A DNA stretch of 61,556 nt, filler included, from Circinaria calcarea (GCA_051942165.1; 5 parts of 5 records of this genome joined end to end with filler, not necessarily neighbours in it); one strand, 5' to 3'. Shown: positions 498 through 55,100, counted from the first letter of the whole stretch. Notes: generated by a model from the letters alone, not told the origin. Numbers and translations are program-made.

Positions 498-2112
498 CTA
501 GTAGGATGCTTCGGCCTGTCCACCAAACTGAGAGTTCTCGTACTGCTCTTGATGAGATGTCACACCTGGGGTGGGTTCCTGCTTCGGCGCATGTGGGAAG
601 TCCGATGAGCTATAAGAAGGTGGCGACCCAGGCCCTGACTTCATCGGGGTATTCGACTTCATGGGGGTGCTGGGGGAAGATTTACCAGTAACCTCGGGAG
701 AAGTGGAACGGCCACGAGCGCTGCCAATGTATTCCTGTGCCTTGGCGCTATAGTCTCCAGCATATGCCTTGACAGTTTCGGTGGCACGGGTAGTATGATG
801 ACCCGCAAGATCCTTGACTTGAGTAGCCTGGGAGTTGATAATATTGGAGAGATTGGTAAGGTGGTGATCAATGAGATCTTTGTTGCTGATGTAGACGAGC
901 GGGCCGAGATAGGTGATGGAAGTAGCAATGAGACAGAGGCCCCAGAGCGGGACGAATTTGATCAACCAGTACGAAATGAATGCCGAGGCGAAAGCCTAAG
1001 TAACTTGTCAGCTAGATAAAGGTGGGTGTCCGTCGATTGGACTGACAGCAATCGTGTGAGCCAAATTCTCTACAAAGAGGATGCGCTGGAACTCGATAAC
1101 AAAGAAGTTGATCAACTGCTCAACATCCTCCAAGGACGCCTCGAGAGATTCTCGGGGGATGGTGTAATACTTCCTCGGGCGGAAGGAAGACGCAAGGCCT
1201 TGGTTAAGAATCAGCTTCCCGGCGACTTCGGAAGCGGCGGTGACTGTGCTCTGTGTTAGATGCAGTTCCAAGCTCTACGTAGCACGTCCACCTACTTCCT
1301 AAAACAATATACAGCGCCTTGAAAGTCCATCGAAGAGCAGGCAGGTAACGAGCAGCAAAAATTGCGAAGATCGTAAAGATGAAGGACAAGGCGGTGGCCC
1401 TAGGCTTGCGCCACTGCAATTCTTAGCATTGGTATCAGCGTTGAAAGTTAGGAAGACCTACGCTAAGGAGATCGTAGAAGAAGGAGTGGTAGTCTATCGG
1501 CCAGTTAGCTTGTTGGAAGAGTCCCGATAGAAGACCATGACGTACGGGTCAACGGCTGCCCGGTCGCAGTACGCTGGTCGGGTACCGTACGAGAGTCTGC
1601 AAGCTCACGGAATTCAGAGCTAGTCTTGGCAGTCTCGTTTTTGACATTTTCTGCTACCGGGCCTGTACAATGGTCAACAGGATACCCACGTACGATGGCA
1701 GCAAGGAGTAGCTATGATATGACAGTCAGTTGGATTGGTCCACAATGAGGCGTCCGGAATACACGCACCTAACCTTGGCTAACGGTATTCTTAATGTTCT
1801 GAGTCATTGGGTGGTTCTGAACGGTGTCCATGGCCGACTGAGCATCTGTGAAGATAATTCAGATACCTTGCCAGTGTCACGCGAGCTGTTGAGGAACTAC
1901 GTAAAAGATCGAATCAGTGGTTGTTAAAGATTCAAAGGAATTCAAATACTCACCTTACTGCTATACATCGTGTCCTTTGCGTTCTGCACCGAACCATTGA
2001 CGTGTGAGGTCGGCGGGGATGAGTAGTCATTGGAGCTCAAGCCCAAGGTCGGGAGCTGCATCTCATACTGGTGAGGAATATTCCCGAGCTGTGGGGGTGC
2101 GTCCGACGACAT
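498..2112 (-). CDS. RTN1: Reticulon-like ER-shaping protein (Rtn1/RtnA/Cwl1 family), multi-exon
   Basis: Spliced reading MSSDAPP...GPVAENVKNETAKTSSEFRELADSR...GQPLTHYHSFFYDLLSWRKPRATALSF...EDVEQLINFFVIEFQRILFVEN...LIKFVPLWGLCLIATSITYLGPLVYISNKDLIDHHL; two long hydrophobic segments of the reticulon domain. ATG at 2112, stop at 498. Confidence 0.9.
1663..1773 (-). other. Candidate second [D5,6] stwintron, reticulon intron 2
   Basis: GTTAG|GTGCGT...ACTGAC...CATAG|CTACTC...TTGAC...TACAG. The 57-nt internal intron (1768-1712) interrupts the donor; its removal rebuilds GTTAGC of a 54-nt external intron. The frame joins SQ-GPVAE. Confidence 0.7.
1846..1958 (-). other. [D5,6] spliceosomal twin intron (stwintron), reticulon intron 1
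   Basis: GTAAG|GTGAGT...CTGAT...GTAG|TTCCTC...CACAG. Removing the 57-nt internal intron (1953-1897) rebuilds the consensus donor GTAAGT of a 56-nt external intron. The frame joins YS-NAQSAMD. Confidence 0.75.
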
Positions 2113-3166
2113 GTTGATGCGTGTCTACGTGGAGGATGATGGATTCTCTCAGTTGGAAGGGTGAATCAAAAACTGTAATGGATGAGAATTACGTTGTTGG
2201 AGAGAGGAGGGTGTTTGGGCTGTTGACGTCGAGAGGAGAATGAATCTTGATTGTGTTCCGTAATTCCGCAGGGCTGGCCGATGACGCCGCAGCCGGTCAG
2301 CTTTGGCCTTTACCTTTGGCCTTTGGGCAAACGGGCCTTTTCCTTGACCGATTCCAAACACAAACGCCCGTTGATTTCCAGACATTCTCCTACGCAGTCT
2401 CCTGGAGAAGACAATGGAAGTACTCTACGGATCACTTGTCCAGTGATTGCTACGATGGCCGCTCCTGTCAACTCACCAGAGGAAGAATTTCACCCTCTCG
2501 ACTTTTCTCTCTGACATGTGACAGCGAATTTTCCAAGCCGGATTGGGCCGGCACCGGTAGGGCTCAGGCTGTCAATTGATATCGCTACAGCACTGCTGTC
2601 ATGGTGGCAGACAAGATCACTGCAGGTGGTAAGCTTCTATCTGGTATCAATGCATTCAATCGTCTGCTCTTGCTCTATATTCGTGGCAGAATAAGGATGC
2701 CGGCTGGTCCTCAGCTAGTGGCCTCATTCCGTCACTTCTCCATCAGACTCGGTCGTGGAATTCAATCAGTGATTGGACTGTGCTCCGCTCATACCTCTAG
2801 CATCATCTTATCCCCCAAAGTGACGGATAGTACAGAAAAGGGGCTGGCTCTACCCACACAAGTATCGGTAAATGAAGCGTCTACTATACTTGCAGTTGAT
2901 ATCCTTTACCATTCCCCAGATTACTTTTCATTGACGAGTCATAGAAATCGGCATAAAGGGCCTCGGTACTTTCATAGACTTCATTGCACTCCCAGATGAA
3001 TTTCTCTACTCCAAGTAGCTAAACACTACTCTTTCCCAATCGACGACCGTCTATACTCCCCTGGAAGTGCATGGCGTCTCGTGCTTACATTCATTACATG
3101 TCCCAGACATCAGTAAACATAACCATAATCATCAACTCATGCTATCCGTCAGCCATCATTTCATGT

Positions 3167-4631
3167 TCAGGATGATGCCCGGCGCCTCTTGGAACCGTGG
3201 TTACCACCGTCCTTCAATGTCCTGTCGGCAATGTGTAGTTGCATCAACAGATACGCGGCTCTTGTCTCCTTCGTCGACGTGGTCACTCGTTTTGGACGCT
3301 TAGTAGGCAATGAGTCTTCCGAAGAACGAGGAGATAAGCTCTTCTCGTGATAACTCTCGTCCACATCTTCGACAGCATGCTTGGTGGGATAACTCTCTTC
3401 GCTACTTGAACTCTCTGGTGAATTCGGCGGAGCGTCACAGCCTCCAGGAACGGCAGCATCTGCCAGAAGCTCCCGCGGCGAAGGTAGTTTGTATTGCTGC
3501 GAGCTTGCGGACCTCGGCGTATTCAAGGCGGTCCACTGAAAAGCTGACTGAGGGGAATGAAGGTACTTGTCGCTTCTGTCTGTATCGGTTCCGTAACCGC
3601 TTTCTACGTCTATGGGCTTTGTGGGCTTTAGCCGTAACGACTTGGACGACCACCTTAAAGGAGCGGAGGATGCTGGCGTTCTAGGACTTCCTGCTCGGGA
3701 TCCTTCTCTCGACATTGTGCGGTACTCTTCTGCCTCTTCGGTACATTTTCGAACAATACTACGGTCGATGACCATATGACCAAATCCTTCGGTCCCAGGC
3801 TTAATGCAAAGTGACAAGAAATCCAGGCCAAAAACCGGCGTCAAGGCATATCGAATATTGTAACAGAAAGTTGCCGCGACTGCTTTGGCGGCTTCAAAGG
3901 GCATCCAGTACCCTATCGTGGCACGGTCAGAAGGGCATCAGAACTCTGGTCAAGGCCTCTACCGTACCTTGAGCTGCCAACGCACCACCTGTAATACTAT
4001 GGCATATTTCGCGAAGCCCCGGGTTGTTGTTCAGCATCTTCGCTGGCATTGTCTGGCACGAACACGTCATTTCATGCCTTAACCTCGTTTGTATCGACAA
4101 GACTAACCTTTGCGTACTGACAGCATTTGAAGAAAGGGGTGATCCTAACCAATCCAACATTATAATCCCACATAACCGTATAGGTGCGCTCGTCTCCAGG
4201 GACCATGAATGTGTACTGATAGACTATTGAAACACGGTCAGTAGTGCAGGCTTTCGTCTCAGCATCGGACTACCGTGTTTCGTACCTTCGAAGCTTTCTC
4301 TTCCGGTCTTCTCCAAGAACGACTTCTTCTCACTATTGTATGGAATATGTCGACGATACTCTGAGATTTTACCCATGGGGTATATCTGAAACCTTCGGTG
4401 CTCTGCGGCAATTTTCTCATCCTGCTTTTCACATGGCGGATACCTGTTCATGCCTTGGAGCTTGCCCTTGGCAAAGACAGCCGCATCCTTTGTCATCTTC
4501 TGCTTCTTGAGGGGTGGAGGAGGTGGTGAGTCAGCTTCAGACTGGTATAGTGCCGAGCAAGGGCTTGGTGGCTGACGATAGTCATCAAAGGCTGACGGGG
4601 CTGGGTTGAGAAGGGAAGCAACGGAGACCAT
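3167..4631 (-). CDS. APSES (KilA-N-like) transcription factor, Xbp1-like, 3 introns
   Basis: [10 protein letters not shown] start; spliced domain [26 protein letters not shown]...[18 protein letters not shown]...[58 protein letters not shown]-terminal AAYLLMQL motif. Confidence 0.9.
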
Positions 4632-30460: not shown

Positions 30461-32435
30461 GGCCGCTGAAGAGTCAAGGAAGAAATATAGAGATCAAACC
30501 GTCAACTTGGCACGAACGTAGTGGAGATGTGTCCCCCATTATATGTCCATATTAGGCGGGAAGGGAGGGAAAGAAATGGGAGCTTCTTTGAAGGGCCAAG
30601 AGACCTTCCCATCTCCGTTGACCACAAAGCCCCCGCCGAAACACCGCCACAGAAAGGGGGGGGGAGTTACGAGCTACATGGGGTAAAAAGGTAAAGAATT
30701 CCCCGATCCTGCGGCGGTGGTGTGATTGATTGCAGTTTCACGCATGAGGTACCCATTGTCTGATGTGGTGCAGCATGCACGAGATAGCGACATGACGTGC
30801 CCCACCGTTCGTGGGAGAAAGCCCGGCCACTGAGTAAGCGTGCTTTACGTAATGTGGGCTCGAATGGTTCTATTGGCCAGAAATGTAAAACGAGATTATG
30901 CAGTCAGATTCTGGACCATCTATTACTAACGTACCGTGTGGATCGCGTAATCAGGAATGATGTGCATAATCCTACCCAAAGAGTACTAGGCACCTAGACT
31001 CGAAGCGAAACCCCCAAGGAAATCAGTCAAGCACGTGACATTGACCGATCCGAGCACTCAATAGCCAGAAGACCAGATCGAGATAAGGATAGGTAGGGTT
31101 CTTATGCATTCTCGATCAGTTTCCTGGTGTTACTCTTTACACCAAACACTCGGGCGCGACCAAGTATACCCCCAGCTGTAGTGACACTCGCACCCTCAAC
31201 GCATATATACCGTATCAACTGCCTCCGTCCCTACCTCCCCTTTGGCCTTCAGCCACAGCCCAAAGCTACGAGGCATCCAAAGCGTGTCATCCCCACATTG
31301 TACGCCACCGCCCAATTGAGGTTCTCCTGGCAAAGAAGGGCAGAACATCGGATTGGAAAGCTTGGTTGTAGAACGGAAAGAATTTCGTTCGGTCAAGGCG
31401 CACGGCTAGGTGTTGTGACCTGTTGGCCGGCACCTGGGCCGGGCGTTCTCGTTCGCTTTCACTGTGCTGCGGTTTGTAGAGCATTCAGTCTCGCTCGCGT
31501 TTGCTCTTTAGTTTGCTATCCATGTTAGCTTCGAAAGACCGAGTGCACCTTACTTCGGGTTTCGAGGCTTGCAACCAGTCCTTGTAATCTCATAGACTCA
31601 TAGAGTCATGGACCGGTTTAGGCCATGAACACATGTGTTGTAGTAATAAGTAGGCAGAAGGAACGTTCTCGGTAGCAGTCGTGATGATTTCAGCCAGGAG
31701 TGACATGTAGTAATAGCCGTGTTTAGCAGTTCAGACGAGGAAGTGATGTATACTGATAGCCAGTCAATCTCCTTTAGGTCCCCTGCGGCGCCCGGGATGG
31801 CTGTTCAATATCCATGTTGGTATGGTGTGAGGAACATGCATGGCATCGGCCGACGTATCTGATTACCAGGTGTATGATCCTGACAGGTAGCTTGGTAGGA
31901 AATCTGTTGATCAGCCAAGTATACAAACTCCGTCCAACTTGGCAAACAAGAAACTGCACTGCGATAGTGCGAACATTAATCAACCAGCAGACAATGGTTC
32001 GCATTCAATCTATCACTGTCCTATAAACCATCCAGCAACCCATGGTATCTTCCTTAAATCCCTGACAAGAATTAACAACGAAGTAAGATACAACAAAGCT
32101 GTGCCTGCGCACTTGGGTCTCTAGAAAAAACTGATGCCCGTCTTCCCTTGCCAAAAATCTGTTCCTGCCATTCTGCCTTCGGCTCTTCAAAGTACTTTTA
32201 TTATGAAAGTAGGTGGTAATGGTACATGCATTGTACTTCCGCGTGCCGTGGTCCGACATATGAGTACACTGGAGAAAGGGGTTCCGTCGATAAGTCGTTG
32301 TTGAGATATGTACAATGCGACAAAGGATTGGAGGCGTACTGTAAGCCCTCTGAGATTTCTTTCGGCTTGCAATGGCAGCCGAGAGAGCCAACTTGAGCTC
32401 GCATTCGATGCAGTTGCTAATTGACTGATAGGTTC

Positions 32436-33613
32436 TCAATATGGATCAGAGTTAGGACCGTTGTGAGGGTTGGCGGGAGGATAGACGTTGCCAAACGGGT
32501 TCGTGTCCTGTTCGGTGTTTTCAAGCTGGGTTGCCATCAGATTGTTCGTGGGACCTTCAGATTGTGTTTGATATGCCGACGAAGGGACAGGGTTGGGAAC
32601 GCCACCAGGCGGTCCGACATTAGCCCCTGACGGACCAACAGGTGGTTGACCACTGGAGGGACCGTAGCTACTGCTGGGCCGGTTGGGATTTTGGTTGTCG
32701 CCTCGCGCGGATTGAGTCTTGATCTGACCGTTAACACCACTGCGCAAAGAAAGCACTATTCAGGGAGGATCGACTGTGAAAAGGCGGATCTTGGAAATCC
32801 CACCCCTCTCGATTGACTTACCTCACGATATTTGGACAGATAGATCTTGAGTGCTTCGGCGTAGTTTTCGAAACCTAACGATGTCATGGCGAAGAGGATA
32901 TCTTCTCCATTCACGGTTTTCCGCTTTTCTTGTTGGCATTTTTCCGAGGCTAGAAGCCATGGATGGGATTTAGCCTCTTCCTTGCACTTAGTCAGGGGAA
33001 ATCCGCGGACCACGTACCTTCGCTTGTAATGAAGGATATAAACTCGCTCACGCATTCCTGCATGCATTCTTTGGCCTCTTTTGCGATCTTCGCGTTATCT
33101 GGCAGAGCCGTCTTCATGATCCGAGCAACTGGAGCAAAGTTACGAATATTAGCATCAGAAAAGGCATGAGAGTCACTACTTCTAGAGCGACATTGGGGTG
33201 AAATTGATTGCGGGGAATTGCGGGACATGGTAGACCTCCTACTGGTCATGGGAAATGAACCATAGAAAGAAGAGTTGAAGAATGCCGGCGCAAATCCTCG
33301 AGTCTTCATGGAAGACCAGTCAGAAGCGCATTCGATGAGGGGGTCAGTCGCAGAAGCGACACCAATACGAGAGCGCTTCTTAGGGTGCAGGCGGCGCGAT
33401 TGGGGTACATAGATTGATAGGAGAGTAATGCATCATGAGGAACCAACCATTTGCTATCGGTAACCAGCGATCCTGCTCCTTCACCTCAAACTCGTAGGCA
33501 AGTTCTCGCGCTTGTCCCTCGGGGTCGGTTCTATTGTCCATGTGCTCGGAATTATCAGGAGACGGATCTCCTTGCTCCACGTCCGTTTCTTTCACAGGTG
33601 GGGATACCGACAT
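32436..33613 (-). CDS. HAP3: CCAAT-binding complex subunit NF-YB (Hap3/HapC), 3 introns
   Basis: [93 protein letters not shown] histone-fold domain. The 3' end is taken from the ORF stop at 32436. Confidence 0.96.
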
Positions 33614-52199: not shown

Positions 52200-55100
52200 A
52201 CTCTATCCCTCATACAAGTCTAGCCTAGCCTATCCTAACACCCCCCTTTACAAGGCTCTTTGATCATTCCCGTTAAAAGCCTCCGAACCGACCATAGCCC
52301 TTAGTTTAGATTTATCCAAGATCATCGACTCAATCTCATTTCCTTCTGCCGCCAGCTTGATCGTCTCGGTTTTGTTATTAAGCTGTCTGACCCGATGAAC
52401 CCGGAAATTCGCTTGAAACTCTCGATACCTAGGCGCTAAAATGGTTTTCGATTAATATAACGAACCGAGACCGGATTAAGTGTACACCCTTGCCCATGAT
52501 ATCCGTAGTCGAAATGAGAAACCGAGGGTTTCTATCGGGGTATAATAAGCTGTCATCGGGCCCTGTCGCCTCTTCGAATGTTGGACGTATATACTCGCGC
52601 TTATCGATGGTGTATTCTTGAGTGGACGAGTATGATCTATTCTGCCCCATAACACCACTCGAGGCACTGTATTCATATTAGCAACTCCATAAAAAGACCC
52701 CTGATAACCGCACTTGCTACCCACCAAAAAAGTAAGATATATAAATATAAGAAATTCCGATAAAAGACTGACTACCTTTTCCGTTCTGCCGACATCATCC
52801 TTCTCCCAACCATCAATCCACTCTCTTAAACGCTGGAGTTTGTCGAAGAACGCAGTGATTTTCCAAACGTTCTTACGAAAAACGTAAATAGGATCAAGGT
52901 AAAAATCCTTTCCGGGCTGAAAATCATCCTTGGTCAGGGTAAATCATTCCTCGCTAGGCGTTTCTGCGGATTGAGCGTATTTAGAATCGATGATATACGG
53001 GTACGACGCCGTAAGTAAACTGCGTGTATAGTTTCGATGGGAGATGGTGTGGTATGAATTTCACATCCACTTCTTCTTTAACACCATCTAAATGCTTTTA
53101 AGCTCACGTTATCGATTTCGTTTTCAATACCTTAAAAAACTTTCATCGATTATTTCTAGATCTTGCCCTTATCTTAGAATTTCTTATAGGCTTTCTTGAT
53201 ATAGATACTGAGGTGGGCTTAAGTATATTGAGTTGAATATTCGGAAAGTTTCTCTAATAATTATGATCCAGGTCGAACCGGGAGCACTTAATTCTTTATA
53301 TAGAATTTCCACCCGCCTTTATACGGTATTATTCATGCAGATCAGAGTCCTTGATCGAAAACATTAGACTTATTCTGGTTGATCAAGAGCGGGTTATATA
53401 TAGGTCGGGTTATGTGTACTGAGACGTCCCCGTAGCTGCGTGGATATAGTAGATTTGCCCGATGGCATTCGAATGCTGATGCCATTAGCTGTTGGTAAGC
53501 ATGCCTAGGTAATAAGTGACTGGGTTGGAGGGCATGACCTCCGTTTTCAGCGGTAAGACTCGGGAGGGGATGGCAGCGCCAGGGCTGGCCTTGGCAACCA
53601 CACCGAGTTCTAATTTCATCGACTCATATTCCTCCCCCAGTTCCCTTAATGCTTTTCTTCAAGATTTCCAAGCTATTCAAACCAAGAAAAAGTTGGCCCG
53701 AATTTGTTTTCCCGGAAGTGCATTCGTGCTTTTTTGGTTTAAAACCCCATTGGACACACCCTCTCTCTCTTCTTTTTTGTCTCAAGTTACAACGAGCATA
53801 TCACGTTTGTGGATATAGTATGAGTAGACTGCTCCCTTCCCAAGGAGAACTATACGCGACCCGCTAGCTCCATGGCTAAATGAGCCAGAATCCTCTTCCT
53901 AATCCGGGACCCCGAATCGTATTGATTCGATTATCTGCGTTTAATCTCTTCTAAATCAAGAGAAACCTATCTCCGCTGCTTGAGTGGCCGGGCTATGTGT
54001 GTGACTCTAGAATGTGGATCTGCAGAAGGTTTTTCAACTTTTATAGAATAGCGTTTCCTGAGGAATTTCGAGGCACATCCCTTTTTCCTCGAAGAACGAA
54101 TGGACCTCCTTATTGAGATCAACATGTTTCGATTTCTCTCCATTCGACAATACCTCGTAAAATTTCTAGGTAGCTCAATCGCATTGGGCCGCTGGGCGTG
54201 TGTGTTCCACGGTCCCCGAACACGTTCTTCTCGTTATCGTTCCCACCGGCGGTAACCTAGTATTCGGAGACTGCATGGGTCCCGAATGGACAGGCCCATA
54301 ATAAAGGGGCACTGGTGATGCGTACCAGCTTTAATCTATTTCAAGGCCCGGACGCTCGCTGCTCATTCTAATTCGGTATAAATCAATCCGAAACAAGCGT
54401 ACCGGCAGCCTCCGATCGGTATTTCTAGCGCATTGGAATTCGTCCATGTAGACGTCTGAAAAGTGCGAGAGTGAAAAGCCCGGGAAACCTCGCATATCGA
54501 CAAAGAGCTCGATGGCCTGTTTTCCCGGGTCTAGCAACTTCGCGCTTATAGGAACTTGGCCGCTTTCCCAAGAACCACTCGTATCGTGGCATTTGCTGAT
54601 GTTACCTTGGACGTATCTTATCTCACAAATTGCTTTTGGTAAGTTCTCATCGGCTCGGGCTATGCGACAGCTGTTTTGAAATATGCATCTGTATTACTGC
54701 GTAAGAATCGCACCCACTCAACCGAGCAGTCATTTTTCCGCGGGAAAGCCTTGAATAGATGTTTATTTGTCTTCGGAAAACACTGATAGGTACTTCTTGA
54801 ATATTAGTCCTAGTTTTCACGTAGCGGTTATCCCAAATCGGAGTTTTATTGAAAGAGACTGTCTCTATAACCTGGTAACATATCTATAATGATGACTCTC
54901 TCATATCTTACCCACGGTTATTAAAGATTACTTTCGGTGTATCAATCCGTCCTAGCTTATTCCCTTGTGACAAGCTGAACGGAAACGCCTTAACGTGAGT
55001 TCGAATGATATCGAAGTCGATCATGACCAATAATGGAATACGTGCTCACCAAGAAAAGAAAGGTACTTGGAAATCTTTCTTAGTCCAATAAACCGGTAAA

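Follow-up and report, generated by a model that had tools for sequence, protein, structure and literature searches.

The question raised by the locus described here is how a gene whose first two introns each enclose what looks like a second, complete intron is turned into messenger RNA (mRNA), and whether the short exon lying between these introns can be left out on the way. The locus was analyzed in a stretch of DNA of 61,556 nucleotides (nt), filler included, in which five parts of five records of the genome of Circinaria calcarea (GCA_051942165.1) are joined end to end; this whole stretch will be called the window, and all positions are counted from its first letter. The minus strand from 2112 to 498 carries a reticulon-like gene, an orthologue of the fungal gene rtnA, with seven exons and six introns, and its first two intervening sequences (IVS1 and IVS2) are the subject of this work. 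We consider it probable that the first two IVS of this rtnA gene are donor-disrupted [D5,6] stwintrons, nested introns that would each be removed by two consecutive U2 splices, the internal intron first and with exon 2 included in the product. We hold the two-step reading with high confidence for IVS1, and regard it as rather likely for IVS2.

The rtnA gene and its two nested introns

The in-frame model of the gene begins with the ATG at 2112 and ends with the stop codon at 500-498, and its exons 1 to 7 occupy positions 2112-1959, 1845-1774, 1662-1546, 1493-1462, 1413-1296, 1243-1047 and 995-498 of the minus strand. The translation stays in frame and comprises 395 amino acids, or 371 amino acids, also in frame, when exon 2 is omitted. 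Exon 1 contributes 154 nt from the ATG and ends in phase 1. Introns 3 to 6 measure 52, 48, 52 and 51 nt, and IVS1 and IVS2, at 113 and 111 nt, have about twice those lengths. This layout of seven exons and six introns is the same as that of rtnA in A. nidulans. Exon 7 alone matches the Pfam family Reticulon (PF02453) with an E of 1.7e-7 and 31.8 bits, which equals the gathering cutoff, and exon 6 alone matches it with an E of 4.4e-7 and 30.4 bits, 1.4 bits below that cutoff. A search with exon 7 returned 226 homologues at E<=1e-5, and the orthologues are labelled Reticulon or Reticulon-like by their sources. The best match (P0001, 100% identical) is named at its source as a protein from a metagenome-assembled genome of Circinaria calcarea; it is followed by proteins of other lichen-forming Lecanoromycetes with 57-76% identity, and two Xylographales proteins match at 38-39%. 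The host gene is therefore the reticulon-like gene rtnA of a lichen-forming Lecanoromycete.

At the level of sequence, both IVS hold a full internal U2 intron, with its own donor, branch site and acceptor, between nucleotides 5 and 6 of an outer donor. IVS1 (1958..1846, minus strand, 113 nt) consists of GTAAG, then a unit GTGAGT..GTAG, then TTCC..CACAG. Its outer donor GTAAG occupies 1958-1954, its internal intron 1953..1897 (57 nt, with the donor GTGAGT, the branch site ACTGAT 13 nt upstream of the acceptor triplet, and the acceptor TAG) and its external body 1896-1846; taking out the internal intron leaves an external intron of 56 nt with the rebuilt donor GTAAGT. IVS2 (1773..1663, minus strand, 111 nt) is built in the same way from GTTAG, a unit GTGCGT..CATAG and CTAC..TACAG. 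Here the outer donor GTTAG lies at 1773-1769, the internal intron at 1768..1712 (57 nt, with the donor GTGCGT, which has C at +4, and the branch site ACTGAC 10 nt before the acceptor TAG) and the external body at 1711-1663; without the internal intron, a 54-nt external intron with the rebuilt donor GTTAGC and a good branch site, GTTGAC, remains. Between the two stwintrons lies exon 2 (1845..1774, minus strand, 72 nt, phase 1-1), which encodes the peptide AQSAMDTVQNHPMTQNIKNTVSQ with split codons on either side. This peptide is kept in most of 65 aligned orthologues, where it is among the best conserved N-terminal parts, and exon 2 measures 72 nt in the parsed lichen loci as well. The coordinates and lengths that the original prediction had assigned to both IVS, to their internal units and to exon 2 all proved exact, and the [D5,6] nested design that it claimed for both introns is borne out by this anatomy and by the conservation in relatives described below.

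The RNA data consisted of assembled contigs from four biocrust metatranscriptome runs of one study, with a gene word share of 0.10-0.13, matched at 90% likeness. The contigs are 90-99% like the window and thus represent a relative, not the same strain. Because assembled contigs drop rare forms, they show the mature product, and intermediates, minor isoforms and transcript level lie outside their reach. The joint 1845/1959, which skips the 113 nt of IVS1, was present in four of four runs, and the 111 nt of IVS2 were skipped in every run as well, with the joint 1661/1773 (the cut moved by +1) in three of them and 1660/1772 in the fourth (X1). The joints 1493/1546 and 1413/1462 were found in all four runs and 1243/1296 in three; the last intron gave the joint 992/1046 with two letters between in all four, and we infer that this is the predicted junction 995^1047 together with one substitution at 993. 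All six junctions of the gene are thus present in the relative's contigs, and the mature junctions 1959^1845 and 1774^1662, which the original prediction had proposed to look for in RNA, show that both whole IVS are removed exactly at the predicted outer borders. Exon 2 was retained in every spanning contig of the four runs. No joint 1959^1662, 1954^1711 or at the inner borders was present in these contigs, in which rare forms are dropped. Short metagenome contigs were considered as captured intermediates and rejected, as they represent mRNAs from distant fungi, spliced to completion (43-56% identity, single high-scoring segment pairs).

The chance of finding the nested design was estimated by shuffling the interior of each IVS 200,000 times while the RNA-confirmed borders were kept fixed. 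The nested architecture appeared in 107 of the 200,000 shuffles of IVS1 and in 51 of the 200,000 shuffles of IVS2, and it was present in 3 of 474 pseudo-introns of the form GTNNG..HAG with 109-115 nt in the window. The full nested architecture within fixed borders is rare and more than chance. The bare motif is not rare: the loosest [D5,6] version matches nine places on both strands of the window, and its three matches in the range of 109-115 nt are IVS1, IVS2 and 53047-53159.

Conservation of the nested signals and the order of splicing

To follow the nested signals in relatives, a profile of 15 orthologues was used to collect 194 encoding stretches from metagenome contigs, of which 80 loci (numbered with the prefix L) were kept, 26 of them lichen-type genomic loci. 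Ten distinct lichen-type loci were aligned with the window, the other 16 being identical or near-identical copies. In all 11 sequences (the window and the ten loci), IVS1 shows GTNAG/GT and a total length of 112-114 nt; the internal intron spans 55-58 nt and has its consensus branch site 11-13 nt upstream of the acceptor, and the external intron spans 55-57 nt. T follows the first candidate internal acceptor in 10 of the 11; the exception is L003, with G there and later acceptors that would give A or C. The expectation that both nested donors would be conserved among orthologues was thus confirmed for IVS1 in all ten distinct loci and for IVS2 in part, since the IVS2 position occurs in three states among the 26 lichen-type loci: a [D5,6] stwintron of 107-123 nt in 14, a plain 52-nt GTATGT intron in two (L024, at 2950-3001, and L026), and no intron in ten, where exons 2 and 3 are contiguous (for example at 3314 in L001). 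The long IVS2 falls, by our own grouping, into three lineages (L003/4/16/17/19/22; L006; L011-14/18/20/60). G/GTTAG/GT is invariant in the six aligned long IVS2 sequences, which have an internal intron of 56-58 nt, a consensus branch site 10-11 nt before the internal YAG and T or C as the next base, and the interiors otherwise do not align across lineages. The three states of rtnA position 2 make the lichen fungi good material for the study of stwintron origin and decay.

At +3 of the outer donors a pyrimidine is frequent (among 12 IVS1 sequences, GTCAG in 7 and GTTAG in 1; GTTAG in 6 of 6 long IVS2 sequences), which is unusual for fungal donors by the published GTRWG consensus. Such a base may hold down the strength of the outer donor before the first splice takes place.

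The proposed sequence of events is that the spliceosome would first excise the 57-nt internal introns 1953-1897 and 1768-1712, whose donors stand in the better context (AG/GT). By this first splice, G5 of the outer donor would come to stand beside the base that follows the internal acceptor, and GTAAGT or GTTAGC would be created, after which a second, ordinary splice would take out the external intron of 56 or 54 nt, and exon 2 would be included in the mRNA as a normal conserved coding exon. The internal intron is expected to leave first because the internal donors follow AG, because G stands at +6 of the outer donors before the first splice exchanges it, because the sizes fit intron definition, and because homologous introns have been shown to behave in this way in other fungi. 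The order of the two steps would thus follow by homology with those verified cases; the position of IVS2 in the window is homologous to that of the verified second stwintron of Helminthosporium solani.

Several observations weigh against this account. The published strict [D5,6] motif is passed by neither IVS, and relaxed motifs pass both: the mismatch lies in the external branch site of IVS1, and in IVS2 at +3 of the outer donor (T) and at +4 of the internal donor (C). IVS1 regains the donor GTAAGT, yet its external branch site in the window is TCTGAA, which does not fit YTRAY and is ATTGAC in most relatives; its weakness had been recognized in the original prediction, as CTGAA. In IVS2, the T at +3 of the outer donor persists after the first splice, so that the rebuilt GTTAGC departs from the consensus GTRWGH, which has R at that place. 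No lineage has a strong internal donor in IVS2 (GTGCGT, GTCGGT, GTTCGA, GTACGA), and in L020/L060 the donor (at ~3324-3334) has become GTACAA, with G5 lost, and the near-identical L011 and L018 have GTACGA. Because these donors are weak and G5 is lost in L020/L060, the model may overstate how far the internal intron of IVS2 is constrained; the L020/L060 donor hints at relaxed constraint on the internal donor or at another route in that lineage. The sole RNA data are assembled contigs of a relative, in which no splicing intermediate is visible, and the available part of a study of Lipomyces describes a [D] stwintron for which one-step removal occurs as well (Ag et al. 2020, PMC7138796).

The last point leads to the main rival, in which one or both IVS, and IVS2 above all, would be removed in a single step through the outer donor (GTTAGG or GTAAGG), with internal signals that are decaying or used occasionally. 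The poor internal donors of IVS2, the loss of G5 just described and the invariance of the outer GTTAG agree with it, as does the presence of an ordinary intron of 52 or 59 nt at the IVS2 position in L024/L026 and L069, which shows that this position works without nesting. In the Lipomyces stwintron, moreover, both routes coexist according to the part of the report available (PMC7138796), and the contigs of the relative cannot separate them. On the other hand, the internal donors are better than the outer ones, which have G at +6 and, in most lineages, C or T at +3. A consensus branch site and a YAG 56-58 nt into IVS2 are present in four lineages whose interiors are otherwise unalignable, and the homologous IVS2 of H. 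solani is spliced in two steps (Kavalecz et al. 2019, PMC6616335). We therefore judge single-step removal unlikely and retain two consecutive splices as the preferred reading for both introns.

The original prediction had also proposed that exon 2 is skippable. As a regulated cassette, it would be lost when the internal donor of IVS1 is spliced to the internal acceptor of IVS2 (1953 to 1712), which would build a donor GTAAG/C and be followed by removal of 54 nt, to give a protein shorter by 24 amino acids. The geometry stands: the frame is kept in the 371-amino-acid product, and acceptor 1712 gives, on paper, GTAAG/C and a 54-nt intron with the branch site GTTGAC. Exon II is skipped in A. niger and N. 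crassa through comparable secondary stwintrons with a 3' extension (PMC6616335), and the automatic gene predictor behind the deposited model picked the same junction from 1953 to 1712. The skipping itself found no counterpart in the RNA, as both of its diagnostic joints are missing from contigs that retain exon 2 throughout, although this amounts to no more than absence of evidence. The peptide of exon 2, besides, ranks among the best conserved N-terminal parts, and under intron definition an acceptor 57 nt away should beat one at 242 nt. Exon skipping in this gene is thus without support from the present data, speculative, and in our estimate improbable.

The deposited protein P0001 differs from the seven-exon model only at 1953..1663, where it splices from 1953 to 1712, translates the leftover 54 nt and omits exon 2, so that the conserved 24 residues are replaced by 17 unrelated residues, KLLLAAIVRGYPVDHCT. 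That it is right, with a single 242-nt intron 1953..1712, the next 54 nt coding and exon 2 intronic, is hardly credible even though its reading frame stays open, since the contigs of the close relative hold exon 2 and both outer junctions, and since the exon 2 peptide is conserved and KLLLAAIVRGYPVDHCT has no counterpart in the 65-protein alignment. The exon was lost from the deposited model because the gene predictor spliced across both nested introns, and a practical use of the present analysis is to correct this model, which lacks a conserved 24-residue exon. Insertions or gaps at these two junctions are also seen in many further rtnA models deposited for lichens.

A conserved block in IVS1 and other features

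The external intron of the first stwintron contains an 11-nt block, GCTCGCGTGAC (1886..1876, minus strand), which starts 11 nt after the internal acceptor. The block is invariant, at this fixed distance, in all 11 aligned IVS1 sequences, and none of the splice signals is as well conserved. It occurs once in the window and exactly once, always in IVS1, in 26 of the 80 loci (at 3202-3212 in L001), with degenerate versions in the more distant L067, L071 and L075. When the block is set against the 11-nt hybrid donor GTNAG/GTNNGN in one exact register, 9 of 11 positions pair in five sequences, 8 of 11 in six and 6 of 11 in one; this comparison covered 12 sequences (the 11 aligned and L022) from nine lineages, was made post hoc, and the lineages are not independent. 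The mean pairing over the nine lineages was 8.22, other registers gave 0.9-6.2, and random 11-mers reached the mean in 972 of 200,000 trials.

A possible, though doubtful, interpretation of this complementarity is that GCTCGCGTGAC acts in cis in the rtnA RNA of Lecanoromycetes, where base pairing with the double donor would decide which of the two donors is taken first. If so, the order of the two splices, their efficiency or the inclusion of exon 2 would depend on this pairing, and a block functional at the RNA level would offer a way to study how nested introns are made to leave in a given order. No dedicated control element for a stwintron was described in the literature searched, and the string of the block is absent from the main text of PMC6616335. 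RNAalifold found no conserved local structure around the block (-0.82, with only a 4-base-pair helix, in both the pre-mRNA and the intermediate), Rfam gave no match at E<=1 in 1500-2150, and the structural stability of the two IVS is unremarkable (z-scores of -0.91 and +1.84). An equivalent anti-donor element in IVS2 was looked for and rejected, because the best complements of the hybrid donor there are the branch sites and no positionally conserved block is present. The branch sites come up in such a search because GTYAG and CTRAC are inherently complementary, and part of the complementarity of the IVS1 block may be the same generic effect.

A second pattern concerns the exon ends. The end of exon 1 (~1992-1960, SVQNAKDTMYS) resembles the end of exon 2 (~1807-1775, MTQNIKNTVSQ), and each of them precedes a stwintron. 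When the last 11 residues of the two exons were compared, both were ungapped in 37 of 66 aligned rows, and in 20 of these 37 no other segment of the whole protein matched the end of exon 1 better than the end of exon 2 did. Transcripts of other fungi contain two tandem copies of NHPxTQ (L021 at 230-450, L044 at 240-430, L068 at 480-600); the extra sequence in these three was considered as a retained intron and rejected, since it is an in-frame tandem repetition of the NHPxTQ unit. These resemblances modestly support an old duplication of a unit made of an exon end plus a stwintron, and an N-terminal region composed of duplicated units could explain the origin of the second stwintron. Duplication is not discussed in the main text of PMC6616335, in which the string 'duplicat' occurs once, as 'in duplicate'.

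Elsewhere in the window, other matches of the [D5,6] type lie on the plus strand at 31820-31987, which passes the published strict motif, and at 53047-53159. The lists of open reading frames gave no convincing coding context for either, and both are probably chance matches. A further match at 32826 was rejected as a nested intron, as it consists of an exon end CGTGAG followed by an ordinary GTAAGT donor. This donor belongs to a gene on the minus strand at ~32440-33100 that encodes a histone-fold peptide, which we take to be typical of the CCAAT-binding factor subunit NF-YB/HapC.

Comparison with published stwintrons

In rtnA, intron 1 is a [D5,6] stwintron in nearly all Pezizomycotina, as established with 754 orthologues (Kavalecz et al. 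2019, Sci Rep 9:9940, PMC6616335). The intermediates at position 1 were verified by reverse transcription-polymerase chain reaction in A. nidulans, A. niger, B. cinerea, T. reesei, N. crassa and M. cinnamomea and by expressed sequence tag in T. melanosporum (PMC6616335). The Aspergillus intron-1 stwintron linked to exon skipping, which the original prediction cited, is real, and its thought that the double arrangement might be unreported is contradicted by the same paper. For many Dothideomycetes, Xylonomycetes and Lecanoromycetes that paper predicts a further [D5,6] stwintron at intron position 2, and in H. solani it verifies both stwintrons by experiment (PMC6616335). Table S1 of that paper lists two stwintrons for Gyalolechia flavorubescens, Lasallia hispanica, L. 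pustulata, Umbilicaria muehlenbergii, Xylona heveae, Symbiotaphrina buchneri and H. solani, and one for Cladonia, Cetradonia, Evernia, Pseudevernia and Ramalina. The same table has no match for Circinaria, Aspicilia, Pertusaria, Megaspora, Ochrolechia or Graphis, so that the species, genus and order of the window are absent from it. The stwintron papers found from 2019 on, judged by titles and the beginnings of abstracts, contained nothing about lichens. For this gene and this fungal class the double arrangement has been in print since 2019; the window adds one species, from an order absent from the published table, and the main finding changes nothing conceptually.

The two stwintrons of the window agree with the published double rtnA stwintrons in the gene, the two intron positions, phase 1 and the [D5,6] split. 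Their lengths of 113 and 111 nt compare with 113 and 110 nt in L. pustulata, and exon II has 72 nt, by our own arithmetic from the coordinates of Table S1, in L. pustulata, L. hispanica, U. muehlenbergii, X. heveae and H. solani (PMC6616335). In the H. solani intermediate MK410466 the second stwintron lies between a homologous exon II peptide and a GPVAE motif (PMC6616335, supplement). This second stwintron of H. solani differs in its length of 290 nt, against 111 nt in the window, and in its outer donor, which is GTGAG there and GTTAG in the window and the lichen loci.

The splice from 1953 to 1712 is a variant of the secondary stwintron idea known from A. niger and N. crassa, where exon II, of 15 nt and 33 nt respectively, is skipped via a 3'-extended secondary stwintron (PMC6616335). 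The likeness is that internal donor 1 is joined to a more distal acceptor, so that the outer donor, once rebuilt, can extend to the acceptor of intron 2. Unlike the present gene, intron 2 is canonical in those fungi, exon II is far shorter, and skipped mRNAs were observed, whereas none was seen in the contigs examined here.

Two further systems can be compared through the available parts of their reports. The Lipomyces stwintrons are likewise donor-disrupted nested introns in a reticulon-like gene, and one-step and two-step excision coexist there; they belong to another subphylum, are split as [D4,5], [D6,7] or [D7,8], and derive from the recent stwintronisation of one long intron (PMC7138796). 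The [D1,2] sister stwintrons of Hypoxylaceae are loosely alike in that their 5' end is complementary to a downstream segment (PMC8469720), which recalls the hybrid donor and the 11-nt block of IVS1. As described there, they are proliferating repeats of the [D1,2] type with terminal inverted repeats of 45-55 nt (PMC8469720), whereas the window has a single 11-nt internal complement in an ancient, single-copy stwintron.

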